Origin: Oscillospiraceae bacterium
GTDB taxonomy: Bacteria > Bacillota > Clostridia > Oscillospirales > Ruminococcaceae
Assembly (NCBI GenBank): GCA_030533325.1
Contig: JAUNJJ010000008.1
Coordinates: 9,219 to 73,218 of the forward strand
Length of the DNA stretch: 64,000 nucleotides
Direction of reading: 5' to 3'
Part shown: positions 9,385 through 25,739 of the stretch, in pieces
Layout: the number at the start of each line of letters is the position of its first letter
Position numbering within the stretch: the stretch's first letter is position 1
Position numbers and translations under genes: made by a program
Notes under the pieces: model-generated
Told to the model about the DNA's origin: nothing
The model's database searches: none
The model's input: the letters and a program-made list of their open reading frames with translations, nothing else

Positions 9385-9427
9385 ATAATATGGAAATATG
9401 TTATGATTGATAATGTCGATAGTTTAA

Positions 9428-10606
9428 TTATCTGATAACTCTCACTCTGATAACATTTTCAACTGAAGCAAGCTTGCTTTCTGTATCAGCATCAACGCTC
9501 TTGCCTGTTGCATCGATTACTGTGTAAGCAAAGTCTTTCTTGCTGTTGCTTATCATGTTTTCGATGTTGATACCGGCTGCGCCCAGTGTTGAAGTAATCT
9601 TTGAGATTGTATCAGGAACGTTCTTGTGGATGATACAGATCTTCTCACCTGTAGCAACCATCTCTGCGTTAGGGAGGTTTACAGAGTTTCTGATGTTTCC
9701 GTTTTCGATGTAGTCGATAAGTTCTTCAGCTGCCATAACTGCGCAGTTATCTTCGCTTTCAGGTGTTGAAGCACCAAGGTGAGGGAGAGCAACAACGTTC
9801 TTTGCACCGATTACTTCAGCACTTGGGAAGTCAGTTACATAGCATGCAACCTTGCCGCTTTCGAGGGCACTGAGGATTGAAGGTGTGTCAACGAGTTCGC
9901 CTCTTGCGAAGTTGAGGATTCTTACGCCGTCCTTCATTGTGCTGATTGCTTCGCCGTTGATGAAGCCCTTTGTATCAGCATTGAACGGAACGTGGATTGT
10001 GAGGTAATCGCAGCATTCAAATACTTCCTTCTGTGAAGGAACAACGCTTACCTTTCTTGAGAGCTTGAGAGCAGCATTTACAGAAAGGAACGGGTCAGTA
10101 CCTACTACCTTCATACCGAGTGAAACGGCAGCATTTGCCACGAGGATACCGATAGCACCGAGACCGATGATACCGAGTGTCTTGCCCTGAATCTCAGGAC
10201 CTGCAAACTGTGACTTGCCTTTTTCAACGAGCTTGCCAACCTGGTCGCCTTCGTTTTTAAGTGAAGGAACCCATGCAAGTGCGTCAGCGAGCTTTCTTGA
10301 TGAAAGGAGAAGACCTGCGATAACGAGTTCCTTAACTGCGTTTGCGTTTGCACCAGGTGTGTTGAATACGCAGATACCCTGTTCAGCACATTTTTCAACC
10401 GGAATGTTGTTTACACCGGCACCTGCTCTTGCGATTGCAAGGAGGTTTGAGCCGAATTCCATGTCGTGCATTGCAGCGGAACGAACCATTATTGCATCAG
10501 GATTAGCCTGTGTGTCTGCAACTGTATATTTTGCCTTGTCAAAAACATCTGTACCGCATGAAGCGATTTTGTTTAATGTCTGAATATTGTACATGACTGC
10601 CTCCAA
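9428..10606 (-). CDS. serA: D-3-phosphoglycerate dehydrogenase (with C-terminal ACT domain)
   Basis: 2-hydroxyacid dehydrogenase NAD-binding motif GIIGLGAIG, catalytic region and a C-terminal ACT-like segment; adjacent to serC. Confidence 0.85.
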   Translation of the reverse strand: MEAVMYNIQTLNKIASCGTDVFDKAKYTVADTQANPDAIMVRSAAMHDMEFGSNLLAIARAGAGVNNIPVEKCAEQGICVFNTPGANANAVKELVIAGLLLSSRKLADALAWVPSLKNEGDQVGKLVEKGKSQFAGPEIQGKTLGIIGLGAIGILVANAAVSLGMKVVGTDPFLSVNAALKLSRKVSVVPSQKEVFECCDYLTIHVPFNADTKGFINGEAISTMKDGVRILNFARGELVDTPSILSALESGKVACYVTDFPSAEVIGAKNVVALPHLGASTPESEDNCAVMAAEELIDYIENGNIRNSVNLPNAEMVATGEKICIIHKNVPDTISKITSTLGAAGINIENMISNSKKDFAYTVIDATGKSVDADTESKLASVENVIRVRVIR

Positions 10607-10611
10607 ATTAA

Positions 10612-11697
10612 TTAAGCATTTTCCTGCTCAAATTTTTTCATAAATTCAACGAGCTTTTCAACACCTTCGATTGGCATCGCGTTGTAGATAGAAGCACGCA
10701 TACCGCCTACTGAACGGTGACCCTTGAGGTTTTCAAAACCTGCTTCCTTAGCTTCCTTTACAAACTTAGCGTCCATATCAGCATCGCCTGTGATGAAAGG
10801 AACGTTCATAAGTGATCTGTCAGCACCCTGAACAGTAGCCTTGAAGAGCTTGCTCTGGTCGAGGAAGTTGTAGAGGATTGCAGCCTTCTTTTCGTTGTGA
10901 GCCTTCATAGCCTCGAGACCGCCCATCTTCTTGATCCACTTGAATACCTTGCCGCATACGTAGATGCCGTAGCATGGAGGAGTGTTGTAGAGAGAATCGT
11001 TGTCAGCCTGAACCTTCCAGTTCATCATTGTAGGAGTCTGCTTAAATGCAGGACCGTCAGCGATGAGGTCTTCACGAACGATAACGATCTGTACACCTGA
11101 AGGACCAACGTTCTTCTGTACACCGCCGTAGATAACGCCGTACTTTGTAACATCAACAGGTTCTGAGAGGAAGCATGAGCTTACGTCAGCAACCAGTTCC
11201 TTGCCCTTTGTGTTCGGAAGTTCAGGGAACTTTGTACCATATATAGTATTGTTTTCGCAGATATAAACATAGTCTGCATCTTCCGGAATATCAAGATCTG
11301 AACAGTCAGGGATGTATGAGAAAGTCTTGTCAGCTGAAGAAGCAACTGCAACTGCTTCACCGTACATCTGAGCTTCCTGGTAAGCTTTCTTAGCCCACTG
11401 ACCAGTGATTATGTAGGCTGCCTTTCCGTTTTTCATAAGGTTCATAGGAACGCCTGCGAAGAGGAGTGAGGCACCGCCCTGAAGGAAGATAACCTTATAG
11501 TTATCAGGAATGTTCATGAGATCACGAAGATCCTGTTCAGCTTCCTTGATAATTGTATCGTATACCTTTGAACGATGTGACATTTCCATTACAGACATTC
11601 CGCTGCCCTTGTAGTCGAGCATCTCGTCTGCACATTCTTTTAGAACTTCCTCCGGAAGAACAGCCGGACCTGCACTGAAGTTATAAACTCTGTTCAT
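10612..11697 (-). CDS. serC: Phosphoserine aminotransferase
   Basis: N-terminus NFSAGPAVLPEEVL, typical of SerC, and 361 aa length; forms a serC-serA operon. Confidence 0.9.
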   Translation of the reverse strand: MNRVYNFSAGPAVLPEEVLKECADEMLDYKGSGMSVMEMSHRSKVYDTIIKEAEQDLRDLMNIPDNYKVIFLQGGASLLFAGVPMNLMKNGKAAYIITGQWAKKAYQEAQMYGEAVAVASSADKTFSYIPDCSDLDIPEDADYVYICENNTIYGTKFPELPNTKGKELVADVSSCFLSEPVDVTKYGVIYGGVQKNVGPSGVQIVIVREDLIADGPAFKQTPTMMNWKVQADNDSLYNTPPCYGIYVCGKVFKWIKKMGGLEAMKAHNEKKAAILYNFLDQSKLFKATVQGADRSLMNVPFITGDADMDAKFVKEAKEAGFENLKGHRSVGGMRASIYNAMPIEGVEKLVEFMKKFEQENA

Positions 11698-11963
11698 TTT
11701 AAAATGACCTCCATAAATTTATCTGATGGTAATAATATGAATTAGAACTGTATCAATAAATATATTATAGATATTATATACACATATATTATTATATGCT
11801 TTTTAATCTGATAAGTCAATATTCTGCGGGGAAATTAATATAAAAAGTGTAAATGAGGATATGGTGTGATGTTGTTTATTCTCACAAATATTCAGAGAAT
11901 ACAGAGTTTAAAATGAGCGTGGGAGTGAATTTTACAAAAGAATATATAATTTGAGAATACTTG

Positions 11964-11992
11964 TTGACATTTTGAATGATGGGATGTATAAT
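11964..11992 (+). promoter_or_regulatory. Consensus sigma-A promoter (TTGACA-17-TATAAT) for the dockerin repeat protein
   Basis: TTGACA at 11964-11969, a 17-nt spacer ending in TG, and TATAAT at 11987-11992. Confidence 0.6.
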
Positions 11993-12029
11993 AAATTTTA
12001 TAAAATTATTTAAGGACGGGGGATTAAAA

Positions 12030-14237
12030 ATGAGAAGATTTTTATCAGGGATAGTTTCGCTGTGCATTGTTTCATCAATGATTTCACAGGTATTTGCCGA
12101 AGGTGACATTCTGAAGGGCGATGTTAATGCAGACGGTATTCTTTCGGCGGCGGATATTGTCAGTATGAAAAAATATCTGCTTGGTGTGGATGTACAGACT
12201 GACAGGGAAGCTGCTGACATTAACAGTGACGGTAATATAAACATAATCGATATGATTCGTCTTATAGGAATGTTTACCGGAGAAACAGCTGCTAAACCTT
12301 CAGTTGCTGAAGTCAACAAAAATGCAGGAAATATTTACAGTACGGCGGTTATGGCGGTAAGATATCTTTCCGGTACGGGAGAAACATTTGAAGACGGTAT
12401 TTACACCAGTGATGACAAGTCCGAACTAACCGGTCTTATTGAAAAAAATGCGGATATTCCTTCCGGTATGCGCTGGTGTATTTCTCTGAAAGATTCAGTC
12501 GTAACCGAATGCCTGTGTGAAACAGGGGGAGTTACAGGAGCTTATCCTAATGTAATACCTCAGATGATGAATGCTGATTACGATAAGGTTAAGTTTGAGG
12601 ATCTTATGGATATCTATACAGACTGGAAAACTGCTTATCCGGAATTTATGTCAGGAAATTCTACGCTCAGTGAATATCCGGAGATAAGTACGGCGGAGAT
12701 GAATCAAATAGCCTGCAACATTAATCATGTAGCAGATACATACAGGTTTTATACAGACATTAAGGGAAGCGAGTATTATGAACTTTCTGACAAAACAGGT
12801 TATTTTTCAGATACGGATTTATCAGAAGAATTCAGGGACTTCATATACAGGCTTTCAGGACTTAATCCAGCGAACACAAGATTTATCATATCAGTTAAAG
12901 ACGGCTATACAGAAGGCTGCATCTGTACAGATGCAGCCGGACAGATAACAGGCTCATATCCGAATGCCGTTCCGCAGACCATGAATGTACCTTTTTCGTC
13001 TGAATATGCCGGATTTTCTGATAAGAAAACATTCAACTGGAAAACTGAAATGCCGCAGTTTATATCTGATGATCCAATACAGTCCTCATTGCCGGATTAT
13101 CCGGAAAGATCGGTTTCAGAGTATAATTCAGCGGCCAGAAAGATTTTCAGTGAAGTTCAGTGTATCACTCAGGAACTTGAGGCACAGGGGACGGAGCTTA
13201 AAGACGGGATATACACTCAGGACAGTAAAGAATTTCTGGAACTGTCGATGCCGGAAATGAAATTTGCTGTTTTAATAGAAAACTATATAGTTGAAGCCTG
13301 TATTGTTTCTAATGACGATTTTATACGAAGCGGTGCATATCCGAGCGGTATTCCTCAGAGTATGAATATTCCTTTTGACAGTAAATATCTGAAAGATGCA
13401 TCAGATTCTGACACTGACTGGAAAATGAAATATCCGGAATTTATTTCTGAAGACCCTGTTCAGGCGGCACTTCCTGATTATCCGTTTAAGCCTGTATCGG
13501 AATATAACAGAATTTCAAAAAGTCTGTTTTCAGATATCCAGACTTTATTGTATGAATATGAAACAAAGGGAATAGATGTAAAGAACGGCATTTATACTGA
13601 TGAAGACGAACTGTGCAGTGAATTCAGATCGAGGGAATATCATTTTTCAGTACTTATTGAAGATTATGTTGTAAAAGGTGTAGCTGCCGGATGTGAAAAC
13701 TGTACCGGTACATATCCGAACGCAATGTCGTCCTGTGTTATTATGCCTTTTAATGAAAAACTTGCGGAAAATGCGGCAGAAGATATATTATGGGAAGCTG
13801 AGTATGCAGATTATGTTTCAGGTGACCTTAAACTGATTGCCCCTGAATATTGTTTTTGCTGTCAGCCGTCATCAGTTCTAAATGGTTGTGCGAAAAAACT
13901 TTTTACAGCAGCTCAGACTGCAGCTGTTAATTGTGAAGCACAAGGAATTATAATTGACGGAGTATACAGCAGCAGTGATTCAAATGAGTATGTTGGCATG
14001 GTGAAGAGTTATTTATCTGATAAGTGCGACTGGAGTGTAAAGGTTGAGAATAATTATCTTGTCGGGGCGTGCGTAAAAGATAAAAACAGCAGCAACATGG
14101 GTGCTTACCCTAATAAGGTGCCTAATCATCTTAGCGTTGAGTATAAAGGATACAATGAACTCTGCGAGAAAGATGCTGACAATGAAAAATGGAATGAAAC
14201 CGGACGCGAATGGTTCTGGTATGATTTTATACGGTAA
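12030..14237 (+). CDS. Secreted N-terminal-dockerin protein made of five ~125-aa repeats of an uncharacterised Cys-containing domain
   Basis: GGGGGA ribosome binding site and ATG at 12030 (MRRFLSG... signal peptide); dockerin loops DVNADGILSAADI / DINSDGNINIIDM; five repeats each carrying DG(I/V)YT...G(A/S/T)YPN(A/V)(V/I)PQ and paired Cys. The ORF-track start at 11976 is less likely. Confidence 0.75.
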   Translation: MRRFLSGIVSLCIVSSMISQVFAEGDILKGDVNADGILSAADIVSMKKYLLGVDVQTDREAADINSDGNINIIDMIRLIGMFTGETAAKPSVAEVNKNAGNIYSTAVMAVRYLSGTGETFEDGIYTSDDKSELTGLIEKNADIPSGMRWCISLKDSVVTECLCETGGVTGAYPNVIPQMMNADYDKVKFEDLMDIYTDWKTAYPEFMSGNSTLSEYPEISTAEMNQIACNINHVADTYRFYTDIKGSEYYELSDKTGYFSDTDLSEEFRDFIYRLSGLNPANTRFIISVKDGYTEGCICTDAAGQITGSYPNAVPQTMNVPFSSEYAGFSDKKTFNWKTEMPQFISDDPIQSSLPDYPERSVSEYNSAARKIFSEVQCITQELEAQGTELKDGIYTQDSKEFLELSMPEMKFAVLIENYIVEACIVSNDDFIRSGAYPSGIPQSMNIPFDSKYLKDASDSDTDWKMKYPEFISEDPVQAALPDYPFKPVSEYNRISKSLFSDIQTLLYEYETKGIDVKNGIYTDEDELCSEFRSREYHFSVLIEDYVVKGVAAGCENCTGTYPNAMSSCVIMPFNEKLAENAAEDILWEAEYADYVSGDLKLIAPEYCFCCQPSSVLNGCAKKLFTAAQTAAVNCEAQGIIIDGVYSSSDSNEYVGMVKSYLSDKCDWSVKVENNYLVGACVKDKNSSNMGAYPNKVPNHLSVEYKGYNELCEKDADNEKWNETGREWFWYDFIR

Positions 14238-14345
14238 ATGTAGAACCATGGATTGATAAATTCGTTAATAAATACAATGAAAAAGGTGAAAAATTAACAA
14301 TCAACGCTCTGACTAATTATTAACATATAAAAGGTGAGCTTTAAA

Positions 14346-15185
14346 ATGAAATCGAAAAAAAAATATATAATAGGAGTTATTCTGTTATTCATTAGTTTGA
14401 TTGTTTATTTTGGTTATCTGTATAATTTCACAGGTTGTATAGTAACACCCAAATATATATATTCATCTGATTATAACGACGAGCATTATGATATAAAACA
14501 GAAGGTAGAAATAGACAGTGTAAGTTCTATTGAGATAACGAGTTCGGATTATAAGTCAACTCTAAGTAACTTAAAGTATTGTAACAACTTATCAAAACTC
14601 ATACTTTACACTTATGATTGTTATGACAATATGAATTTTTTAAGTGACCTAAAGTATATTGAGTTTCTAACCACCACATGTAAATCTAAAAGTTGGGATG
14701 GAATAAGTGGATGTACAAAATTAAAGTCGATAACTATGTTTTCGTCTGATTTTTCAGATTTAAATCTTCTTTCAGGTTTTTCTGAACTTTCAGAGCTGAA
14801 AATAGAATCTGAAAAGCAGATGAAATATGGCGGTTTAGATACTTTAACATCTTTGGAAAAACTTGTTCTTGCAGTCCAAAATGCTGATTTAAAAGAAATT
14901 TCAAAGGCTCCGAAAATAAATGAATTAGAGTTTCACTGCTTAAAAGACACTTCAAATATAAGCTATATATCTGAAATGGAAAATTTGAATTTTATATTTT
15001 TTGGTGCATGCGATATAGATGAAGAGATGCTGATGGAGCTGTCTGAGATACAAAAATTAAAAGAATTAAATTTTTATCGTTGCAAGTTTGACTTTGACGA
15101 AGATACTTTTATAAAATATCTAAATGATATTACCTCTAAAAATATAATTGTTAAATATGAAAAAAATGAATATTTATCAAAATAG
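14346..15185 (+). CDS. Membrane-anchored LRR-like protein (paralogue of 18390..19226)
   Basis: N-terminal transmembrane helix then a leucine-rich repeat-like domain (LSDLKYIEFL.., W-DGISGC, LSELKIES..). ATG at 14346 with AAGGTGAG ribosome binding site; shares an architecture and motifs with the gene downstream of toxin-like copy A. Confidence 0.65.
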   Translation: MKSKKKYIIGVILLFISLIVYFGYLYNFTGCIVTPKYIYSSDYNDEHYDIKQKVEIDSVSSIEITSSDYKSTLSNLKYCNNLSKLILYTYDCYDNMNFLSDLKYIEFLTTTCKSKSWDGISGCTKLKSITMFSSDFSDLNLLSGFSELSELKIESEKQMKYGGLDTLTSLEKLVLAVQNADLKEISKAPKINELEFHCLKDTSNISYISEMENLNFIFFGACDIDEEMLMELSEIQKLKELNFYRCKFDFDEDTFIKYLNDITSKNIIVKYEKNEYLSK

Positions 15186-15187
15186 GA

Positions 15188-15290
15188 TCTTCTGTACATT
15201 TGGTCGATTGTAAACTGTATTTATTCTATGTTTCGCTTGGAAACAAATTTCATTGAATGTGACGTTGTTGCAGAGAGGCAGTTGATGTCT
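15188..15290. repeat. Conserved ~100-bp cassette-tail element (copy 1 of 2; other copy 22565..22667)
   Basis: ctg(t/c)acatttggtcgattgtaaactgtattta..ttgttgcagagaggcagttgatgt is shared immediately after the stop of two different downstream genes. Confidence 0.7.
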
Positions 15291-15536
15291 GCACAGGCAA
15301 TCAGCCTATCACTTTCGCTCCTGCTGTAAAGTGGCTTTATCTGCATAAACGCTGATGACTCTCAAATCTCAAAATAAAAGAATTTTTTTCTGATATTCAT
15401 ATCAGTATATCAAAGTCATTAAAACTACATGTTTTAGCGGATTAGTGCTAAAAAATATTGCAAAGAAGCAATAAAACTATCTAATTCATCTTAATTTTCC
15501 AAATATATATGGATGAATCACTGAACAAATAACAAA

Positions 15537-15582
15537 CAATCCCACCAAAACTGAGTTTTCAGAATCCGGTGGGATTGTTTTT
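15537..15582 (+). terminator. Shared hairpin terminator element (copy 1 of 4)
   Basis: caatcccacc-N21-ggtgggattg followed by TTTTT. The same element is at 19524..19569 and 22678..22724, with a right-half copy at 24458..24482. Confidence 0.7.
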
Positions 15583-15601
15583 ATTTAATATAAAGTAATA
15601 A

Positions 15602-15630
15602 TTGACAAATAAATCATTCTGATGTATAAT
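15602..15630 (+). promoter_or_regulatory. Perfect consensus sigma-A promoter of toxin-like cassette A
   Basis: TTGACA at 15602-15607, a 17-nt spacer ending in TG, and TATAAT at 15625-15630. Followed by GAAAGGAAG ribosome binding site (15647-15655) and ATG 15662. Confidence 0.7.
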
Positions 15631-15648
15631 ACTTTTATCAAACATTGA

Positions 15649-18360
15649 AAGGAAGTAGAAGATGACAACGGTATTTCCGATAACGGTGAAATTAAACTTG
15701 GACTTGATCCGCTGAAAATAAAATCAGACGGAAAAACTTCTGATGCAGAGAGAATATTTGAACAGAAGTTAGATACAGACAGTGAAACATTCAGAGTAAT
15801 AAACAGTGAAGAAAATCCATATAGATTATCAGTATCTGCGAAAGCATCCGGATATATAGGTGAATCTGTTAATGCAAACATAAGTTCATATTCAAATTAT
15901 CTTCAGAATGAGGCAGTTGCAGGTGATATAATTGATATCGACTATGCGGATTCTTTTAAAATTGAAACACTGACAATAAGCTTTACTGTTTCTGAGAATG
16001 CAGCAGATTATTACATATTCAGATATTTTGAGGATGTAAATATGCTTCTGCCGGTTGAAACCCAGTATGACGGAAACAGGGTATATACTGAGGCTGCAGA
16101 AGACGGAACGTACTGTATTGTTGACATGGATAAGTGGATTGAAAATACGGCTGAAACAACAGAGGTACAAAGTGCAGGTGATGTTTATAATGCAGTTTAT
16201 GCATCATCTGAAGCAAAATCGCTTGAAAGTCTGGAAGTATATTTTCTTATGTATATCAGAAGTTCAAGCATTGACAGTGCAAGAAGTTCTGTAGCAAATG
16301 CTTCAAGAGCAATTATTGACTACTGTAACAGTACCGGCAGAGATGTGAGACTGTATTTTGCTGGATATACTGGTGCAACAGCAGTATCAAATGAAACAGG
16401 AAACTCATATGCAGACAATGCATCAACAGATGAAGAAATTCAGGAAATGCTAAGCGGAACAGATTCGGCAACAGGTTCGCTTGACACTACAAATTTTGAC
16501 TATTCTCTTACACGTGCATTAAAGAAGAGTCTTCTCGAGATATCCGGAACCAATGAAAACAGTAAGAAGTACTGTTTTGTAGTAGATGTGAATTTTGAAC
16601 CGAAAAGTGCATCGAATGTTGCAGTTGTGGATGAGATGAAGAGTTATGGTGTCGATTTCAGTTTTATATGTAATGACCATAACAGTAATATTGTAAATTA
16701 TGAAAGTCTTTCTTCAGATGGCACGCATATAAGATGGACTCCGGATTTTTCTGAGGTTATTACTGATAAAGTTTTAGGTGCTGTAGTAACATACAACGTA
16801 AATACAGGCTTATGTAATAAAATTCCGTATAACGAGGCTTTAATAACATCAGAATGGAAAGATATCTATGAAAAATTCTATTCCGGAAAGCTTTCAATCG
16901 ATGAGATAAAGAAATTGGGACTGCCGGATACAGATGGAGACGGAAATCCGGACTGTCTTGAAATTTTCATGAAATATATTAGTTTTGATGAGAATGGAAA
17001 TATAATACTGCCTGCATACGACGAGCTTGCGAGAGATACTATGGGAAACAGCAGGTTTGGATTAAAGGGACTGGATGAATTAGTCAGTATCATGAAGAAA
17101 AAAGGAATGAACATCAGTGATTTACGCATTCTTCCGTTAATATCAAATCCTGCGTTTGAAGACAGTGATTTTGATGGAATACCGGATAGTACAGATAAAA
17201 GACCTTCTGAAGAAGATATTATCAGTGTTGATGATAATATTATAGACGACAGCAGAGTGTTCGAAAGTGATTATAAAACCATAAGTAATAATGCTGTTGA
17301 TGGAAATGGCATTGCATCATCACACAGCGGAGACAAAAAGAACAATATTATTAAGTATGCAAGACTTATACGTGCGGACGGAAAAGCAACTTCAAAATTT
17401 TATATTGAGCCTGACAATAACAGTGATTATCTTATAACAGTTGACACAGGAAAGTATGATGATTGTCAGATAAAGGTGTCTTATGAAAAGGGAATAATAT
17501 TCAAGAAGGATGTAGCTGTTTCAGATATTGAACTGGATGAAGGAATCGAAGAAAAAGAGCAGAACGGAAACGTTATGCATAACAGAAAAGCGTATTCACT
17601 GGAAAAAGGGAAAAAATATAAGGTAATTGTAACGATAGCATCAACAGATTTTGCAGCTAATAACTATAGTGTTTCTTTTGAGCAGAATAACTGGGTTTAT
17701 GCACCTAATGGCGGATATGACTTCACAAAGATAAATAATTTTATGCAGACAGAAACTGTTTATACCGATGGTAATAGTCTTTTCAACATGCTGAAGGAAG
17801 CTGTTGAAAAATTAAAAGGTCCAAATGAAATAAAGGCAGATTCATTAAATGATTATCTTGAAGGTAAAAACAATGATCAATTGCAGTATGTTGCTGAAAA
17901 GAATGCAGAAACATTATTGGATTTTCATAAATTTACGGATTCAGATTTAGAAAAAATAGTAGGTGATATAGGGAATGCTGCTTCTCTTACTGGATTAAGT
18001 TCTTGTATGTTCTTGTATTTGGCACAGGATTCCGAATCAATGGCAATTTTAGCATTGTTAAATGGAATTGGTAATGGTTCCACTATTATTGGAGGAATTA
18101 CAGCTATATATGCCATAGTATCTGCAAATTCAAGTAGTAGTGAACAGCTTCTTGGTAATGCATTATATGAAGGTAGATATAATATCGCTACACACACAAC
18201 AAAGTCTACCTATAGTGAGATTGAGAGAGATTTTAGTACAACAGTGGTGACATATTCCGGATGGAGTGAATCTCATTTTATTAATCGATATAATACCGAT
18301 AATACAAGAAAAACAATAGTTGTTTATTTCGAAGGATTAAATCAAACTGTTATAAAGTGA
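15649..18360 (+). CDS. Polymorphic-toxin-like large protein, copy A (conserved N-terminal ~690 aa plus unique C-terminal ~215 aa); start codon unresolved
   Basis: The reading frame is open from the stop at 15646-48 to 18360 and coding-like throughout. EF-hand/TSP3-like Ca loops (DTDGDGNPDCLE, DSDFDGIPDSTD). The C-terminal domain has a Gly-zipper hydrophobic segment (GIGNGSTIIGGITAIYAIV). First in-frame ATG is 16042, which has a GAGGA ribosome binding site. The ATG at 15662 with a strong ribosome binding site is in the +1 frame and stops after 17 codons. Confidence 0.7.
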   Translation, partial: KEVEDDNGISDNGEIKLGLDPLKIKSDGKTSDAERIFEQKLDTDSETFRVINSEENPYRLSVSAKASGYIGESVNANISSYSNYLQNEAVAGDIIDIDYADSFKIETLTISFTVSENAADYYIFRYFEDVNMLLPVETQYDGNRVYTEAAEDGTYCIVDMDKWIENTAETTEVQSAGDVYNAVYASSEAKSLESLEVYFLMYIRSSSIDSARSSVANASRAIIDYCNSTGRDVRLYFAGYTGATAVSNETGNSYADNASTDEEIQEMLSGTDSATGSLDTTNFDYSLTRALKKSLLEISGTNENSKKYCFVVDVNFEPKSASNVAVVDEMKSYGVDFSFICNDHNSNIVNYESLSSDGTHIRWTPDFSEVITDKVLGAVVTYNVNTGLCNKIPYNEALITSEWKDIYEKFYSGKLSIDEIKKLGLPDTDGDGNPDCLEIFMKYISFDENGNIILPAYDELARDTMGNSRFGLKGLDELVSIMKKKGMNISDLRILPLISNPAFEDSDFDGIPDSTDKRPSEEDIISVDDNIIDDSRVFESDYKTISNNAVDGNGIASSHSGDKKNNIIKYARLIRADGKATSKFYIEPDNNSDYLITVDTGKYDDCQIKVSYEKGIIFKKDVAVSDIELDEGIEEKEQNGNVMHNRKAYSLEKGKKYKVIVTIASTDFAANNYSVSFEQNNWVYAPNGGYDFTKINNFMQTETVYTDGNSLFNMLKEAVEKLKGPNEIKADSLNDYLEGKNNDQLQYVAEKNAETLLDFHKFTDSDLEKIVGDIGNAASLTGLSSCMFLYLAQDSESMAILALLNGIGNGSTIIGGITAIYAIVSANSSSSEQLLGNALYEGRYNIATHTTKSTYSEIERDFSTTVVTYSGWSESHFINRYNTDNTRKTIVVYFEGLNQTVIK

Positions 18361-18389
18361 CGAAATATCAAAGAATTGGGCGTAGAGAT

Positions 18390-19226
18390 ATGAAAACAGA
18401 AAAAATATTTAAAATACTTTTTTTCCCTTTTCTCGCTGTAGTTGTATACATGGTAATATGGCTTGTAAAAGGGCAACCGTTATTAACCAAAGTGGGTAAT
18501 ACATGGATGTGCACATACTCCAGTTATCTGGATTTTGATGATGATAATCTTAAAGAGTCAGATATACAGAAAATTCAGCGATTTGAATGGGTTGAAAAAT
18601 TTAACGGGTCCTTTTGGAATGTAAATAATTTGGAATGTATCAGAAATATGAAGAATTTAAAAACAATTCTTATTAGCATTTACAAACCCAATAATATTAT
18701 TGACTGGACTGGCATATCCAATTGTTCTAATATTGAAGATGTTTATATAAGTGGCGGTGAATTATCGGATTTATCTTCTTTTGTAGGTTTGAAAAAACTA
18801 AAATCTCTGGCACTTGAATGGGGACGTGAAGGTGCAGAAATAGATATACAGAAAATATCAGAGCTGACTTCTCTTGAATACCTTATAATTGAAGGTTATA
18901 CTATAAAGAATGTTGAAGCACTTAGTGATGTTTCAACATTGAAATCGATAATAATAAAGGGAAGAGCAGAGGATATTGTATCTTCATGTCCTGCTGATAA
19001 TTTAGAAATATTATGTTACAAGGCATATAGTGAATCTGAATTTGAAGCATCAGATTTTTTGAGATTTGAAAATCTAAAAAAATTATCTGTTACTGGTGCA
19101 TACATTAACAATATAGAGAATATTGTTGATATGAAAAATCTAGAAGAAATATCGGTAGATGGAGAACTGTATTCTGATGATGAGTTGTCTGTTTTGGAAA
19201 GTAATGGGATGTATGTTAACAGATAG
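18390..19226 (+). CDS. Membrane-anchored LRR-like protein, candidate cognate immunity/partner of copy A
   Basis: Starts 30 nt after the toxin-like stop (alternative GTG at 18357 overlaps that stop). N-terminal transmembrane helix plus LRR-like repeats (WTGISNCSNIEDVYISGGELSDLSSFVGLKKLKSLAL); paralogous to 14346..15185. Confidence 0.65.
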   Translation: MKTEKIFKILFFPFLAVVVYMVIWLVKGQPLLTKVGNTWMCTYSSYLDFDDDNLKESDIQKIQRFEWVEKFNGSFWNVNNLECIRNMKNLKTILISIYKPNNIIDWTGISNCSNIEDVYISGGELSDLSSFVGLKKLKSLALEWGREGAEIDIQKISELTSLEYLIIEGYTIKNVEALSDVSTLKSIIIKGRAEDIVSSCPADNLEILCYKAYSESEFEASDFLRFENLKKLSVTGAYINNIENIVDMKNLEEISVDGELYSDDELSVLESNGMYVNR

Positions 19227-19294
19227 ATGAACTGTTTTAGAAAATATATAAACAAATTTCAATTAATAAGTTGTCAAACGACCAATCGAATAAC

Positions 19295-19339
19295 AAAAGC
19301 CTGTCAAATAACGTATTTACGTTAATTGACAGGCTTTTG
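19295..19339 (+). terminator. Intrinsic terminator after LRR gene 2
   Basis: aaaagcctgtcaa...ttgacaggctttt hairpin with T-run. Confidence 0.6.
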
Positions 19340-19341
19340 TT

Positions 19342-19393
19342 ATCATATTAAATTCAGATTTGCAACAGGATATCCAATCCTTGTGGAATTCAG
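19342..19393. repeat. 52-bp dispersed element (second copy at 25563..25614, upstream of the Fic gene)
   Basis: atcatattaaattcagatttgcaacaggatatccaatccttgtggaattcag is present identically at both sites. Confidence 0.8.
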
Positions 19394-19507
19394 AGACAGA
19401 TATAAATTACAGTCAAACCATGACAGCGGAGTCGGAAGATATGATGTTATGCTTATACTGAAAATGCAAATGAAGGCAAGGAGGTACTTGTCGGGAGTGC
19501 ATAACAG

Positions 19508-21701
19508 CTGAACAAATAACAAACAATCCCACCGAAACTGAGTTTTCAGAATCCGGCGGGATTGTTTTTATTTAATATGAAGTAATAATTGACAAATAAA
19601 TCATTCTGATGTATAATACTTTTATCAAATATTGAAAGGAAGTAGAAGATGGCAACGGTATTTCCGATAACGGTGAAATTAAACTTGGACTTGATCCGTT
19701 AAAAATAAAATCAGACGGAAAAACTTCTGACGCAGAGAGAATATTTGAACAGAAGTTAGATACAGACAGTGAAACATTCAGAGTAATAAACAGTGAAGAA
19801 AATCCATATAGATTATCAGTATCTGCGAAAGCATCCGGATATATAGGTGAATCTGTTAATGCAAACATAAGTTCATATTCAAATTATCTTCAGAATGAGG
19901 CAGTTGCAGGTGATATAATTGATATCGACTATGCGGATTCTTTTAAAATTGAAACACTGACAATAAGCTTTACTGTTTCTGAGAATGCAGCAGATTATTA
20001 CATATTCAGATATTTTGAGGATGTAAATATGCTTCTGCCGGTTGAAACCCAGTATGACGGAAACAGGGTATATACTGAGGCTGCAGAAGACGGAACGTAC
20101 TGTATTGTTGACATGGATAAGTGGATTGAAAATACGGCTGAAACAACAGAGGTACAAAGTGCAGGTGATGTTTATAATGCAGTTTATGCATCATCTGAAG
20201 CAAAATCGCTTGAAAGTCTGGAAGTATATTTTCTTATGTATATCAGAAGTTCAAGCATTGACAGTGCAAGAAGTTCTGTAGCAAATGCTTCAAGAGCAAT
20301 TATTGACTACTGTAACAGTACCGGCAGAGATGTGAGACTGTATTTTGCTGGATATACTGGTGCAACAGCAGTATCAAATGAAACAGGAAACTCATATGCA
20401 GACAATGCATCAACAGATGAAGAAATTCAGGAAATGCTAAGCGGAACAGATTCGGCAACAGGTTCGCTTGACACTACAAATTTTGACTATTCTCTTACAC
20501 GTGCATTAAAGAAGAGTCTTCTCGAGATATCCGGAACCAATGAAAACAGTAAGAAGTACTGTTTTGTAGTAGATGTGAATTTTGAACCGAAAAGTGCATC
20601 GAATGTTGCAGTTGTGGATGAGATGAAGAGTTATGGTGTCGATTTCAGTTTTATATGTAATGACCATAACAGTAATATTGTAAATTATGAAAGTCTTTCT
20701 TCAGATGGCACGCATATAAGATGGACTCCGGATTTTTCTGAGGTTATTACTGATAAAGTTTTAGGTGCTGTAGTAACATACAACGTAAATACAGGCTTAT
20801 GTAATAAAATTCCGTATAACGAGGCTTTAATAACATCAGAATGGAAAGATATCTATGAAAAATTCTATTCCGGAAAGCTTTCAATCGATGAGATAAAGAA
20901 ATTGGGACTGCCGGATACAGATGGAGACGGAAATCCGGACTGTCTTGAAATTTTCATGAAATATATTAGTTTTGATGAGAATGGAAATATAATACTGCCT
21001 GCATACGACGAGCTTGCGAGAGATACTATGGGAAACAGCAGGTTTGGATTAAAGGGACTGGATGAATTAGTCAGTATCATGAAGAAAAAAGGAATGAACA
21101 TCAGTGATTTACGCATTCTTCCGTTAATATCAAATCCTGCGTTTGAAGACAGTGATTTTGATGGAATACCGGATAGTACAGATAAAAGACCTTCTGAAGA
21201 AGATATTATCAGTGTTGATGATAATATTATAGACGACAGCAGAGTGTTCGAAAGTGATTATAAAACCATAAGTAATAATGCTGTTGATGGAAATGGCATT
21301 GCATCATCACACAGCGGAGACAAAAAGAACAATATTATTAAGTATGCAAGACTTATACGTGCGGACGGAAAAGCAACTTCAAAATTTTATATTGAGCCTG
21401 ACAATAACAGTGATTATCTTATAACAGTTGACACAGGAAAGTATGATGATTGTCAGATAAAGGTGTCTTATGAAAAGGGAATAATATTCAAGAAGGATGT
21501 AGCTGTTTCAGATATTGAACTGGATGAAGGAATCGAAGAAAAAGAGCAGAACGGAAACGTTATGCATAACAGAAAAGCGTATTCACTGGAAAAAGGGAAA
21601 AAATATAAGGTAATTGTAACGATAGCATCAACAGATTTTGCAGCTAATAACTATAGTGTTTCTTTTGAGCAGAATAACTGGGTTCATGCACCTAATGGAG
21701 G
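19508..21701 (+). repeat. 2.19-kb tandem duplication block B
   Basis: See block A; promoter TTGACA 19589-19594 / TATAAT 19612-19617, ribosome binding site, and ATG 19649 in the +1 frame as in copy A. Confidence 0.95.
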
Positions 21702-22269
21702 TATACAACATGTCGTTCCGTATAACTGTTATTTTCCAGTTGATAGAATGTTTATAGCTACGGACACTTTTAAGCTAGCATTACAAAAAAACCATAAAAT
21801 CATGATAGACGAAAATTCAGATACAGAAAGTCAAACGAAAGCTATTATGAAACAATTAGGCCTTGATGATGGTAAGAAAGTTCTTTTTGATAGTTTTCTT
21901 ACTGCTGTCGGTACTTGTATATCGGGAAGTGCTACTGCTGCTGCAATAGTTGATCCGGAACCTGGAACGAAAATAATAATTGCATGTATAGCGGATGGTA
22001 TAAATACATATTTTGTGGCTTCTTCAATAAAATCTACATTTGGATATTTTGAATCTAAAGATTTTGAAAATGCTTGCAATGAAGGCGATATTAACCTTAT
22101 ATTCACTAAAAAAGGGCAAGTAACATTTTTTCAAGATCTTTGGGATCCATGGAAAACCGCTCCGTATATAAGCAAATATGATACAGATTCAATGAATGGA
22201 AGAACAAAAAGAACAATTGATAAAAATATAACCGCTGAATCAGTTATAAGTTATTGTGGGTTAAAATGA
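19636..22269 (+). CDS. Polymorphic-toxin-like large protein, copy B (same N-terminal ~690 aa, different C-terminal ~190 aa)
   Basis: Open frame from the stop at 19633-35. Identical to copy A up to ...SFEQNNWV, then unrelated (HAPNGGIQHVVPYNCYF...). The C-terminal domain has a hydrophobic Gly/Ala-rich segment (AVGTCISGSATAAAIV...IIIACIADGI). Confidence 0.7.
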   Translation, partial: KEVEDGNGISDNGEIKLGLDPLKIKSDGKTSDAERIFEQKLDTDSETFRVINSEENPYRLSVSAKASGYIGESVNANISSYSNYLQNEAVAGDIIDIDYADSFKIETLTISFTVSENAADYYIFRYFEDVNMLLPVETQYDGNRVYTEAAEDGTYCIVDMDKWIENTAETTEVQSAGDVYNAVYASSEAKSLESLEVYFLMYIRSSSIDSARSSVANASRAIIDYCNSTGRDVRLYFAGYTGATAVSNETGNSYADNASTDEEIQEMLSGTDSATGSLDTTNFDYSLTRALKKSLLEISGTNENSKKYCFVVDVNFEPKSASNVAVVDEMKSYGVDFSFICNDHNSNIVNYESLSSDGTHIRWTPDFSEVITDKVLGAVVTYNVNTGLCNKIPYNEALITSEWKDIYEKFYSGKLSIDEIKKLGLPDTDGDGNPDCLEIFMKYISFDENGNIILPAYDELARDTMGNSRFGLKGLDELVSIMKKKGMNISDLRILPLISNPAFEDSDFDGIPDSTDKRPSEEDIISVDDNIIDDSRVFESDYKTISNNAVDGNGIASSHSGDKKNNIIKYARLIRADGKATSKFYIEPDNNSDYLITVDTGKYDDCQIKVSYEKGIIFKKDVAVSDIELDEGIEEKEQNGNVMHNRKAYSLEKGKKYKVIVTIASTDFAANNYSVSFEQNNWVHAPNGGIQHVVPYNCYFPVDRMFIATDTFKLALQKNHKIMIDENSDTESQTKAIMKQLGLDDGKKVLFDSFLTAVGTCISGSATAAAIVDPEPGTKIIIACIADGINTYFVASSIKSTFGYFESKDFENACNEGDINLIFTKKGQVTFFQDLWDPWKTAPYISKYDTDSMNGRTKRTIDKNITAESVISYCGLK

Positions 22270-22270
22270 T

Positions 22271-22558
22271 ATGATTAAGTTATTTGTTTGCTTGTTACTT
22301 AATGCAATTGATGTTTTTTACTTTAAAAATAAAAATAAAACGACACTCACATTTGTGCTGCTGGGTTTAGTTATATATTCTTTATATTTTTTTGAAGTTT
22401 CAAATGTTATATATTTAATCGATATTTATGTAGCAAGTTTGTTTTTATTGAATTGTTATTATTTGAGAAAGCAAAAGCAAAAAAAATTCGGTACATTAAC
22501 AGCATTAATGCAATTGCTGATAGTAATAATTATGGGAATAATAATAAAATTTACCTAA
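22271..22558 (+). CDS. Small multi-pass membrane protein, candidate immunity protein for copy B
   Basis: ATG 1 nt after the toxin-like stop (TGAtATG); 95 aa with 3 predicted transmembrane helices and a KQKQKK loop. Confidence 0.55.
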   Translation: MIKLFVCLLLNAIDVFYFKNKNKTTLTFVLLGLVIYSLYFFEVSNVIYLIDIYVASLFLLNCYYLRKQKQKKFGTLTALMQLLIVIIMGIIIKFT

Positions 22559-22564
22559 TAGGCT

Positions 22565-22667
22565 CTTCTGCACATTTGGTCGATTGTAAACTGTATTTAA
22601 TCTACGTTTTACTTGACAGCGGATTCCATTGGATGTGACTTTGTTGCAGAGAGGCAGTTGATGTTTG
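22565..22667. repeat. Conserved cassette-tail element (copy 2)
   Basis: About 85% identical to 15188..15290; runs directly into the hairpin element 22678..22724. Confidence 0.7.
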
Positions 22668-22739
22668 AACTGGAAGACTATCCCACCGAAACTGAATTTT
22701 CAGAATCCGGTGGGATTGTTTTTTGGCTTTTATTATTCC

Positions 22740-22815
22740 TAAGAATCATATCTTTTTATTCTGTATTTCAGATTTCTGCTGCTTGGTTTATCAGGAACAG
22801 TACGTTCAATCAGAC
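22740..22815 (-). pseudogene. 3'-terminal fragment of a Fic-family gene (about 25 codons plus stop), duplicate of the 3' end of 24490..25518
   Basis: The reverse-strand translation GLIERTVPDKPSSRNLKYRIKRYDS* matches the Fic C-terminus ..GVIERTVPDKPSSRNQKYRIRRYVSSE*. About 115 bp (22700..22815) is about 88% identical to 24458..24572. Confidence 0.75.
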
Positions 22816-22863
22816 CTTAAAATTATGGTATACTCGTAGTAAAATGCGTTTTTACCTGACACT

Positions 22864-22979: not shown

Positions 22980-24356
22980 ATGGAGAGAGGCATAATTATG
23001 ATACTGAAACGAAAAATGTACAACAAGCTGTTGACTCTCAAAAACGAGCTGTACGGCAAGAAAGCCTTTCTTATCGAAGGGGCAAGGCGTATCGGCAAGT
23101 CAACGATATGCGAGGAATTCGGCAAAAACGAATATAAGAGCTACATCCTCATAGACTTCGCCAAGTGTCCCAATGAGGTGAAGGACTATTTTGTCAAGCA
23201 CATGAACGACCTTGATACGTTTTTCATGCTGCTTTCTACCTACTACGGCGTGAAGCTGTATGACCGTGAGTCGCTTATCATCTTTGACGAGGTTCAGATG
23301 TACCCGAAAGCGAGGGAGTGCGTCAAGTACCTTGTTGCAGACGGAAGGTACGACTATATCGAAACAGGCTCGCTGATTTCGATTAAAGAGAACGTTAAGA
23401 ACATTGTAATTCCCTCGGAGGAGCGTCACATTAATATGTATCCGATGGATTTTGAGGAATTCTGCGATGCACTGGGTGAGGAACAGATATGCGGATATAT
23501 TCGCAAGTGCTTTGCCGACAGGATGCCTCTTGAAAACGAGCTGCACCACAAGGCTATGCTACTGTTCAAGCAGTATATGCTTGTGGGTGGTATGCCGCAG
23601 AGCGTAATTGCGTTCCTTGAAAGCCGAAAGGACTTTGACAGGGCAGACATTGAAAAGCGTGACATTCTCTCGTTGTACCGCAGTGACATTATGAAGATAG
23701 ATAGCAAGTACCGAAGCAAAGTTCTCACCATATTCGATCAGATACCGGGGCTGCTCTCTCAGCACGAAAAGCGTGTCGTTTTTAATGACGTTTCGGCTGG
23801 CAGTAAAGCCGATCAGTATGAGGAGACTTTCTTCTGGCTGTCTGATTCGATGATATCCAATGAGTGCTTTCTGTGCAATGACCCGAATGTAGGGTTGTCA
23901 ATCAACGAGAACAGAGCGTATGTGAAATGCTATCTCGGTGACACGGGTCTGCTCGTCAGCCATGCATTTGACGAGAATGAACTGCTTGAAGATGAGGTCT
24001 ACAAGCAGATTCTCGGTGACAAGCTGAACATGAACGAGGGTATGCTCTATGAGAACGCTATCGCTCAGATGTTGACAGCCAACGGTCACAAACTGTATTT
24101 CTATACGCAGTACAATGCTGAAAAGCACCGAAACGATATAGAGATAGACTTTCTCATCTCCAACAACAGCAAGCTGAAATACAAGATGTTCCCGATAGAA
24201 GTCAAGTCGGGTAAGAAGTATTCAATCGAATCGCTCAAACGCTTCAAGGAGAAATATAAAGCTCGGATTGGTGAATGCTATGTTATCCACCCACGCAATC
24301 TCTGCTTCAAAAATGACATCGTCTGCATACCGCCTTATATGACAATATGTCTATAA
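22980..24356 (+). CDS. AAA+ ATPase with DUF4143 C-terminal domain (COG1373-like)
   Basis: Walker A GARRIGKST and Walker B LIIFDEVQ. Overall architecture matches the widespread 'ATPase (AAA+ superfamily)' proteins. Alternative start at ATG 22998. Confidence 0.7.
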   Translation: MERGIIMILKRKMYNKLLTLKNELYGKKAFLIEGARRIGKSTICEEFGKNEYKSYILIDFAKCPNEVKDYFVKHMNDLDTFFMLLSTYYGVKLYDRESLIIFDEVQMYPKARECVKYLVADGRYDYIETGSLISIKENVKNIVIPSEERHINMYPMDFEEFCDALGEEQICGYIRKCFADRMPLENELHHKAMLLFKQYMLVGGMPQSVIAFLESRKDFDRADIEKRDILSLYRSDIMKIDSKYRSKVLTIFDQIPGLLSQHEKRVVFNDVSAGSKADQYEETFFWLSDSMISNECFLCNDPNVGLSINENRAYVKCYLGDTGLLVSHAFDENELLEDEVYKQILGDKLNMNEGMLYENAIAQMLTANGHKLYFYTQYNAEKHRNDIEIDFLISNNSKLKYKMFPIEVKSGKKYSIESLKRFKEKYKARIGECYVIHPRNLCFKNDIVCIPPYMTICL

Positions 24357-24489
24357 CCAAAACTATCTGTATTTCCTGATAAAGCGATTGTGCATGATTG
24401 ATTTTTAACCTCTCACATTTTCGTGTGGAGGTTTTAATTTGTGTAGAATAATTGGCTCCAGAATCCGGCGGGATTGTTTTTTACTTTTA

Positions 24490-25518: not shown

Positions 25519-25739
25519 GTGAAACTCCTTTGAATTATAAAAATTATTATTATTATTACTGTATCATATTAAATTCAGATTTGCAACAGGATATCCAATC
25601 CTTGTGGAATTCAGGCAGATAGTATATTTCAAAGCACGATTATGTCTTTCGGACATAATTACATAGCGGTAAAACAGCACCTTTTGACAGGGTGCTGTTT
25701 TATGCATTAAATGGAAGTATTCATTTATTGTTCCCGCTA

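Follow-up and report, generated by a model that had tools for sequence, protein, structure and literature searches.

Tandem 5'-truncated toxin-like cassettes with a consensus promoter and an out-of-frame ATG in an Oscillospiraceae bacterium

A 64,000-nucleotide stretch of the genome of a gut/rumen Oscillospiraceae bacterium (assembly GCA_030533325.1, contig JAUNJJ010000008.1, positions 9,219 to 73,218 of the forward strand), referred to below as the window, contains a tandem array of two units, cassettes A and B. Each unit is composed of a promoter, a toxin-like gene, an immunity-like gene, and a terminator. The promoter and ribosome-binding site of each unit lead to an ATG that opens an open reading frame (ORF) of 17 codons. 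The toxin-like gene is a long stop-free frame, shifted by -1 relative to this ATG, in which the first ATG, GTG, or TTG is positioned 131 codons downstream of the frame opening, at ATG 16042 in cassette A and ATG 20029 in cassette B.

Organization of the cassettes

The array is formed by the following features:

15536-15582, forward strand: terminator hairpin copy 1 with T-run, cassette boundary (repeat family D4; fold -23.3 kcal/mol, z -6.5)
15602-15630, forward strand: promoter of cassette A, TTGACA-17-TATAAT, 12/12 consensus matches
15647-15655, forward strand: ribosome-binding site GAAAGGAAG of copy A
15649-18360, forward strand: long frame of cassette A, 903 codons, stop-free, opening after TGA 15646-15648, -1 relative to the ATG
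15662-15715, forward strand: 17-codon ORF of cassette A, peptide MTTVFPITVKLNLDLIR*, stop TGA 15713-15715
16042-16044, forward strand: first in-frame ATG of cassette A, the NCBI-annotated start, with GAGGA at 16030-16034 and a 7-nt spacer
17680-17715, forward strand: boundary motif NNWVYAPNGG of copy A
17716-18357, forward strand: variable C-terminus A
18390-19226, forward strand: LRR2, membrane-anchored leucine-rich repeat (LRR) protein, immunity-like partner of C-terminus A (Pfam LRR match, transmembrane segment)
19523-19569, forward strand: terminator hairpin copy 2 (fold -22.1 kcal/mol, z -5.4)
19589-19617, forward strand: promoter of cassette B, with the same sequence as promoter A
19634-19642, forward strand: ribosome-binding site GAAAGGAAG of copy B
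19636-22269, forward strand: long frame of cassette B, 877 codons, stop-free
19649-19702, forward strand: 17-codon ORF of cassette B, peptide MATVFPITVKLNLDLIR*, stop TAA
22271-22558, forward strand: 95-residue polytopic membrane protein, immunity-like partner of C-terminus B, starting 1 nt past the toxin stop
22677-22723, forward strand: terminator hairpin copy 3, closing the array, with no promoter after it (fold -24.8 kcal/mol)

Perfect TTGACA-N17-TATAAT sites occur five times in the window, compared with 0.01 expected by chance from shuffled sequences. The pattern of GAAAGGAAG, six nucleotides, and ATG occurs twice, at ATG 15662 and ATG 19649, compared with 0.01 expected. ATG 15662 arises from GAT-G spanning consecutive Asp-Asp/Gly codons, and the short ORF is the +1 frame of the long ORF. 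An earlier reading of the window, made from its sequence only, had described the promoter, the ribosome-binding site, the ATG, and the 17-codon ORF, and all of them are present in both copies; the ribosome-binding site is borne out, but it is separated from the ATG by 6 nt and not by the 7 nt given there. That reading had also placed the long frame one nucleotide off, without a start for 131 codons and with GAGGA ahead of 16042, and had called both 2.7-kb frames stop-free; we confirm these statements for both copies.

The repeat spacing from copy A to copy B is 3987 bp. The encoded bodies are 99.7% identical over 688 residues, and the C-termini differ. Four differences separate the copies in the first 2040 nt of the long frame, all of them inside the first 393 nt. 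The substitution of CTG by TTA close to the junction had been noted in the sequence-only reading as one of the only two differences near the site, but positions 15644 and 15744 differ as well. The other difference reported there, A to G at 15665, is non-synonymous in both frames, with a change of Asp to Gly in the long frame and of Thr to Ala in the short frame.

Folding energies of -22 to -27 kcal/mol and z-scores of -5 to -8 mark the hairpins as strong terminators. Inside the units there is only one weak, 5-bp terminator-like site, at 18519 within LRR2, and none that is convincing. Therefore, each stretch from a promoter to the next hairpin looks like one transcription unit.

Domain structure and variable modules of the encoded proteins

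Neither copy of the long frame matches a Pfam or NCBIfam family, PT-TG included, at E <= 0.01. A 5.8-billion-protein database was searched for homologues with the whole frame and with the first 143 residues as queries. The NCBI proteins Q4D76_03065 and Q4D76_03075, named "MAG: Oscillospiraceae bacterium" (MAG, metagenome-assembled genome), are the annotated versions of the two frames and start at the internal ATG; the Prokaryotic Genome Annotation Pipeline (PGAP) annotation (P0001, P0004) gives products of 772 and 746 residues from 16042 and 20029.

The nearer relatives are 1,000-1,150 residues long; ahead of the region that matches the window, they have a signal peptide followed by a type I dockerin and a number of bacterial TSP3 repeats. 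In proteins P0005, P0008, P0009, and P0012-P0014, the signal peptide, Dockerin_1, and TSP3_bac repeats precede ...KEDTDGDGISDNGEIKLGLDPLK. The order of the full-length proteins is signal peptide, dockerin, TSP3, beta-sandwich, vWA, beta-sandwich, NNWxYxPxGG boundary, and variable C-terminus, and a membrane immunity-like gene follows. In distant relatives (25-30% identity, 55-97% query coverage), CBM2 or CBM49 carbohydrate-binding modules (CBM) take the place of the dockerin, and distant relatives with the same body terminate in AHH, WHH, deaminase, EndoNS_2, or lipase domains. The secretion or anchoring module, which in full-length relatives is a signal peptide with Dockerin_1, or CBM_2/CBM49, is absent from the copies in the window. 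No paper on a dockerin/CBM2-TSP3-vWA toxin family was found in the literature, and as far as this search reaches, this polymorphic toxin-like family, which is anchored by dockerin or CBM modules and occurs in fibre-degrading Firmicutes of the gut and rumen, has not been described previously.

The AlphaFold (AF2) model of copy A has a pLDDT of 81.6. In the model, residues 1-35 form a TSP3 tail and residues 36-158 a beta-sandwich; a disordered linker leads to a vWA-like alpha/beta domain (194-400) with two TSP3-like calcium sites after it, and the chain continues through a second beta-sandwich region (520-705) to a helical-plus-sheet C-terminus (707-902). In Foldseek searches, the vWA-like domain matches vWF A3 and integrin I domains with E-values of 1e-4 to 1e-5. 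It is the sole identification in the Foldseek comparison with the PDB, in which no toxin fold was found for the C-terminus.

The identity of copies A and B collapses right past EQNNWV(Y/H)APNGG, and beyond this point only a 12-residue match is left. The motif NNWxYxPxGG marks the equivalent boundary in 13 relatives. Neither C-terminus A nor C-terminus B has a Pfam or NCBIfam match; five matches to C-terminus A were found among 1.84 billion representatives, all of them in the same architecture. The combination of body, boundary, and co-varying downstream gene corresponds, judged by sequence, to a polymorphic toxin-immunity architecture, with a putative protective role of the downstream gene. 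This architecture supports the label "toxin" that the sequence-only reading had applied to the long frames, but no recognised toxin domain is present in either copy, and we infer the toxin-like character from the gene arrangement.

A remnant of another toxin gene and an orphan immunity-like gene are positioned upstream of cassette A:

14234-14323, forward strand: toxin C-terminal stub (...WIDKFVNKYNEKGEKLTINALTNY*), 29 codons, directly before LRR1, identified by tblastn
14346-15185, forward strand: LRR1, N-terminally membrane-anchored, orphan immunity-like gene (weak LRR_14 Pfam match; hydrophobic residues 3-33)

In the tblastn comparison with the last 200 residues of P0009, the stub is 85% identical over 26 residues (E 1e-9). 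The stub is absent at the syntenic locus L001. LRR1 is related to genes located 3' of family toxins at loci L003, L009, and L007.

The comparison of the window with L001 shows how the C-terminal modules vary. The bodies of the proteins are ~97% identical, as are C-terminus B (98%) and its partner of 95 or 97 residues (95%). In contrast, the identity is 53% for C-terminus A and 44% for its LRR partner. The full-length protein P0014 has a C-terminus 50% identical to C-terminus A and is followed by a related LRR gene whose product is 37% identical to LRR2. Protein P0006, from L003, is a mosaic: its residues 1-500 are 95% identical to the window, whereas residues 500-889 are 26% identical to the window and 69-76% identical to the full-length proteins P0012 and P0007. 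Because P0006 is mosaic and a homologue of C-terminus A is carried by the full-length P0014, modules have been exchanged between truncated and full-length lineages. After the truncation, the C-terminus and immunity modules were also replaced as matched pairs, as the comparison of the window with L001 shows.

Truncation junction and selection on the long frame

The window frame opens with KEVEDDNGISDNGEIKLGLDPLK, inside the last TSP3 repeat, where full-length proteins read ...KYKTNPLKEDTDGDGISDNGEIKLGLDPLK.... DNA homology to the full-length genes at L004 and L007 starts at ~15646, and TTGAAAGGAAG aligns with CCG TTA AAG GAA G. The homology thus begins at the frame opening; nothing of the signal peptide or the dockerin remains in the copies in the window, and the last TSP3 repeat is the only one retained. 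Among the possibilities raised in the sequence-only reading, 5'-truncated orphan cassettes that retain a promoter are supported, since full-length relatives extend upstream of the exact opening point.

The native 5' end at L004 consists of TTGACG-17-TATAAT, 16 nt, TTGAAAGGAA, 8 nt, and ATG, which is the same layout as that of the cassette leader. Perfect or near-perfect promoters are also positioned ahead of the full-length genes at L007 and L012. The 10-mer TTGAAAGGAA is the native ribosome-binding site and, with one mismatch, the Leu-Lys-Glu coding DNA at the breakpoint. Judging from these similarities, the native 5' untranslated region (5'UTR), the Leu-Lys-Glu codons in the TSP3 linker, or the two together may be the source of the cassette site GAAAGGAAG. 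The apparent likeness of the cassette promoter to upstream TSP3 coding DNA is unproven.

The arrangement had been reported as kept in both copies, which is the case, and the same junction of hairpin, promoter, ribosome-binding site, and ATG also occurs, together with the TGA and the 17-codon ORF, in five further copies from four other assemblies. They are L001 (ENA ERZ9423997, two tandem copies, syntenic), L002 (ERZ27255505), L003 (a pig-gut assembly), and L016 (ERZ28657021). The junction, common to seven copies in five assemblies, thus represents a single inherited event, and not a signal that was selected repeatedly. An exact scan of JGI metagenome contigs for the 29-mer promoter module gave 0 matches. 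Protein-guided scans recovered one locus in GTDB genomes (L008, identical to the P0005 locus) and three metagenome loci, none of which is truncated at the window junction. The protein P0121 was considered as an upstream extension of the frame into the -10 box (MYNTFIKYWKEVEDG...); it was rejected as an artefact, in which the gene caller read TGA as Trp, and the DNA of L016 (87-746) has the TGA.

Broken 5' ends and repeat-mediated deletions are common in the dockerin/TSP3/vWA family. Locus L017 contains two independent 5'-deletion derivatives in one array, in which the native ribosome-binding site, ATG, and signal peptide are kept and the body is out of frame. In one of them (1-300), the signal peptide/dockerin start is fused 20 codons before the NNW boundary motif. 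In the other (1790-1900), a 1-nt deletion past A6GG accompanies the joining of the signal peptide to the vWA domain. In proteins P0051 and P0123, internal segments between TSP3 or dockerin repeats have been deleted.

The long frame evolves under constraint along its whole body. Among the window, L001, and L002, codons 1-129 have a ratio of non-synonymous to synonymous polymorphism (pN/pS) of 0.20-0.27, and codons 130-680 fall in the same range (0.22-0.26). Within the initial 393 nt, 11/18 substitution events are synonymous, compared with 21% expected (p = 3e-4), and the excess holds without the first ten codons (p = 9e-4). This substitution pattern indicates that the first 131 codons are under purifying selection and evolve as coding sequence. 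About 5% of random substitutions would create a stop, and the probability of no stop is ~0.006 for 100 neutral substitutions; on these figures, neutral evolution is unlikely to have left six copies intact. The terminator-promoter module has diverged less than synonymous sites: between the hairpin and the ribosome-binding site, 2/119 nt differ between the window and L001, compared with 33/422 synonymous sites (~8%; Fisher p = 0.018). The cassettes (15529-22812) are 96-97% identical between the window and L001, whereas the flanking housekeeping and dockerin genes (9426-14238) are 93% identical, which suggests that the cassettes were exchanged or homogenised later than the genomes diverged.

Several repeats and genes surround the array. 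A 117-nt direct repeat (85% identity; 15181-15297 and 22557-22673) follows LRR1 and the 95-residue gene. It abuts the terminator hairpin after the 95-residue gene and lies ~240 nt from the hairpin after LRR1, and it probably marks the ancestral 3' flank of the cassette. A 99-nt direct repeat (90% identity; 22720-22818 and 24477-24575) flanks a gene for an AAA_14/DUF4143 ATPase (22980-24356). This gene is missing from the syntenic L001, where a Fic gene is positioned directly after the 97-residue gene, and it resembles an insertion accompanied by duplication of its flank. A perfect 53-nt direct repeat is located downstream of LRR2 (19341-19393) and upstream of the Fic-family gene (25562-25614; gene at 24490-25518, minus strand). 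Immediately upstream of the array, in the window and in L001 alike, is a gene for a 735-residue dockerin protein (12030-14237) with about five repeats of an unannotated ~120-residue domain and a recurring ...GAYPN..P motif. Since a perfect consensus promoter (11964-11992) overlaps its mechanically called ATG 11976, the real start of this gene is probably ATG 12030.

Two full-length members of the family have irregular starts. In P0014 (L010, 7925-8000; also L011 and L012), the ATG is one base off the signal peptide of the protein across an A8 run (CCAAAAAAAAGG), and A7 in place of A8 would restore MASIQKKVNARRKAKRCLALVLSAAMALPF. An A6-A8 run recurs at this position in several family members (compare L004, 335-400). 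The run at the 5' end of P0014 may be a slipped-strand on/off switch or a site of recurrent inactivation. P0013 (L007, 9917-9955) has an in-frame TGA at codon 12, between the ATG and the signal peptide (MENECFQKKDK*HLFKRCLAF...), which disables its 5' end and leaves the remaining ORF intact.

Orphan cassettes and alternative explanations

On balance, we favour the interpretation that the two units are transcribed, translationally silent, 5'-deleted orphan cassettes of a cellulosome-anchored, polymorphic toxin-like family of cellulolytic Oscillospiraceae/Ruminococcus. One ancestral deletion would have removed the signal peptide, the dockerin, and all of the TSP3 repeats except the last one, and would have joined the native promoter, 5'UTR, ribosome-binding site, and ATG region to TSP3 DNA through a short shared AAAGGAA or ATGG. 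With the junction one base off register, the ribosome-binding site would feed the out-of-frame ATG, translation would halt after 17 codons, and the 2.7-kb frame would be left without a usable start or export signal. The entire unit, from the promoter through the truncated toxin and the immunity gene to the terminator hairpin, was subsequently duplicated in tandem, and gene conversion keeps the copies alike. The promoter may have been retained since its transcript carries the downstream membrane immunity-like gene, and the toxin-coding part may have been preserved intact, as a reservoir for recombinational exchange with other members of the family.

A number of observations count against silent orphan cassettes. 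The origin of the leader is one of them: blastn-short finds only 10-11-nt matches between the cassette and native promoters, with E-values of 0.8-3, which is the noise level. These matches fall at the expected places (TTGAAAGGAA in L004 and AATAATTGACA in L007), and at such E-values the native-promoter origin is suggestive and unproven. Besides the two cassettes and the 26-residue stub, the 64-kb window contains no member of the family, and no full-length gene was seen within 15 kb at L001 either. No full-length protein in the 5.8-billion-protein database is more than ~62-76% identical to the body (60-62% for the body, 76% for a short N-terminal stretch). Since no near-identical full-length protein was found, the recombination partner is unseen; it could be hidden by incompleteness of the MAG, or because genes with broken 5' ends are called as pseudogenes. 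If immunity alone is needed, it is an odd design to place a consensus promoter 2.7 kb ahead of the immunity gene. Purifying selection and six intact frames of 2.6-2.7 kb fit translation in situ at least equally well, and the position of the 95-residue gene, which begins 1 nt past the toxin stop and has a weak ribosome-binding site, hints at coupling to a translated toxin frame. C-terminus A is unlinked to any other toxin-delivery architecture. Finally, classical orphans are transcribed from the main gene and lack a promoter of their own; those of contact-dependent growth inhibition (CDI) systems follow a full-length cdiA and share its transcript, whereas each cassette in the window has its own consensus promoter, ribosome-binding site, and terminator.

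Selection on the whole frame, codons 1-131 included, and conservation of the promoter would also be expected if a non-standard start allowed some low-level translation of the frame in situ, yielding a cytoplasmic addiction-type module, an explanation that we regard as unlikely but the least so among the alternatives. The codon at 15655-15657 is GTG in all four other lineages and GTA in both window copies, so that on this explanation the window lineage would just have lost its start, and gene callers start P0002, P0003, and P0006 at the GTG (MEDGDGIS...). The other start considered is a near-cognate codon such as CTG 15711 of copy A, which is TTA in copy B. There is a precedent in Salmonella, where internal promoters and a CTG start can yield a low level of intracellular toxin from an orphan Rhs-CT (Starsta et al. 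2020, PMC7043789). However, the GTG overlaps the core of the ribosome-binding site (GGAAGTG), which makes its effective spacing <= 0, whereas the out-of-frame ATG is at the ideal distance of 6 nt. Initiation directed by the site would therefore put the ATG, and not the GTG, into the P site. The LRR domain of the immunity-like protein probably faces outward, and the membrane location of this anchored protein and of the polytopic partner fits a toxin that acts from outside, which makes a cytoplasmic product without a signal less plausible. The sequence-only reading had considered that homologous loci might restore an in-frame ATG by a 1-nt indel; this was not seen, and the relatives differ instead by the point change at 15657 that gives GTG. 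A related proposal, to which we assign a small probability, is that the cassettes are autonomous genes, in which the promoter and out-of-frame ATG would form a deliberate low-output device and a rare -1 shift or a GUG or other non-AUG start would produce a small quantity of a signal-less vWA/beta-sandwich protein with a polymorphic C-terminus. If so, the protein and its membrane partner would be an addiction or kin-discrimination module inside the producer, which would explain the selection on all 900 codons, the conservation of the promoter, and the absence of a full-length partner.

Initiation at the internal ATG 16042/20029, with the upstream 393 nt serving merely as a leader or recombination handle, had been raised in the sequence-only reading and is improbable. 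The ATG is the first canonical start, is preceded by GAGGA with a 7-nt spacer, and is the start annotated by PGAP, and translation of the 3' part of the frame could allow coupled translation of the 95-residue gene. However, the corresponding Met131 is invariant across full-length homologues, and is thus an ordinary internal residue. It is positioned in strand 131-134, in the middle of the first beta-sandwich of the AlphaFold model, and the product would open with this domain (36-158) broken. GAGGA encodes Glu-Asp and is changed to GAAGA in both L001 copies by a synonymous substitution, the 131 upstream codons have the same pN/pS as the remaining frame, and the product would still be without an export signal. 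The idea that the units are plain decaying pseudogenes, with the promoter, ribosome-binding site, and ATG as relics and with frames kept intact by recent origin and gene conversion, deserves little credence as well. It would account for the out-of-frame junction and the loss of the export domains, in a family in which many members have broken 5' ends, and the copies in one genome differ at just 2-4/2040 nt. Against it stand a pN/pS of 0.2-0.27 across lineages ~3% apart, the lack of any stop or indel in the six copies, the promoter/terminator module that is better conserved than synonymous sites, the joint replacement of C-terminus and immunity pairs after the truncation, and the higher identity of the cassettes than of their flanks between genomes.

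In programmed -1 frameshifting, known from dnaX and IS3-family transposases, a short well-initiated frame overlaps a long -1 ORF. In the cassettes, too, strong initiation signals feed an ORF overlapping the -1 frame, and all seven copies keep this arrangement. The sequence-only reading had raised a programmed -1 (or +2) shift as a possibility; placed within the 17-codon overlap, such a shift would yield a junction peptide such as MTTVFPITVKLN-LGLDPLK. This mechanism is very improbable. In contrast to the known cases, the cassettes lack a slippery heptamer and a conserved stimulatory structure, and their overlap is not conserved as a signal. Inspection of every codon of the overlap in four sequence variants revealed no X XXY YYZ heptamer and no homopolymer run that would permit transcriptional slippage. 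The nearest slippery-like motif is A_UUA_AAC, in which TTA AAC resembles the final six bases of the viral U_UUA_AAC, but its P-site codon UUA is preceded by A and cannot re-pair. A small hairpin follows the motif in copy A and L001 (-10.4 kcal/mol, z -3.1). In copy B, the change of CTG to TTA, which no other change compensates, weakens this hairpin to -6.6 kcal/mol (z -0.6). The 5' region as a whole folds modestly (z -2.0). A scan of 15200-16200 against Rfam gave no match at E <= 1, and a check for a leader attenuator revealed nothing resembling a terminator between the leader ORF and the long frame. The short peptide varies across lineages (T/A/V at codon 2, T/M at codon 3, and I/K at codon 7). 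Most substitutions in the overlap keep the long-frame residue or replace it conservatively and change the short-frame residue, which argues against conservation of the short peptide itself. The stop codon that ends the short ORF is a by-product of the long frame, as 4/6 Leu codons placed before A create a stop in the +1 frame. Common descent from one deletion accounts for the shared junction, further members of the family that arose by deletion are out of frame in differing ways, and a frameshift product would again have no export signal.

Silent orphan cassettes have counterparts in other bacteria. Signals for translation initiation and export are missing from orphan cdiA-CT and rhs-CT fragments, which have expressed immunity genes and are activated by recombination (PMC3150448, PMC3967940). 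The units in the window resemble the cdiA-CT/cdiI orphans of CDI systems (Poole et al. 2011, PMC3150448) in being 5'-truncated toxins that keep the conserved region upstream of the boundary motif, in the cognate immunity gene after each toxin, in the formation of arrays, and in the exchange between strains. They differ in the very long retained body (~680 residues) and in belonging to an unrelated family, which is of the dockerin/TSP3/vWA type, Gram-positive, and Sec-dependent. Like the orphan Rhs-CT of Salmonella Typhimurium (Koskiniemi et al. 2014, PMC3967940), they are fragmented frames without initiation or export signals, of the kind that recombination with the main gene activates. The Salmonella orphan shares a 522-bp, 95%-identical segment with the adjacent main rhs gene, whereas no such partner was seen for the window. 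The promoter in Salmonella is internal and close to the C-terminal domain, whereas that in the window is a perfect consensus upstream of the whole fragment and is preceded by a terminator. Salmonella Rhs orphans have also been reported to behave as a toxin-antitoxin or addiction module (PMC7043789). The conserved body, sharp boundary, hypervariable C-terminus, and co-varying downstream immunity gene are shared with Firmicutes polymorphic toxins that have modular N-terminal anchoring domains (overview PMC4436062), and dockerin is among the domains associated with PT-TG proteins (PMC13483458). The boundary motif in the window is NNWxYxPxGG, and neither of the C-termini matches a known toxin family.

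The results correct the annotation of these genes, in which the NCBI starts are placed at an internal Met, and metagenomic callers start at a GTG that abuts the ribosome-binding site or read TGA as Trp. Intact, selected, and strongly promoted frames without a usable start or a visible full-length partner bear on the upkeep of silent toxin reservoirs. If the two units are silent orphan cassettes, such toxin-immunity cassettes would reach past the proteobacterial CDI and Rhs loci into fibre-degrading Firmicutes of the gut and rumen, and in this dockerin- or CBM-anchored family each cassette would be a self-contained transcription unit.

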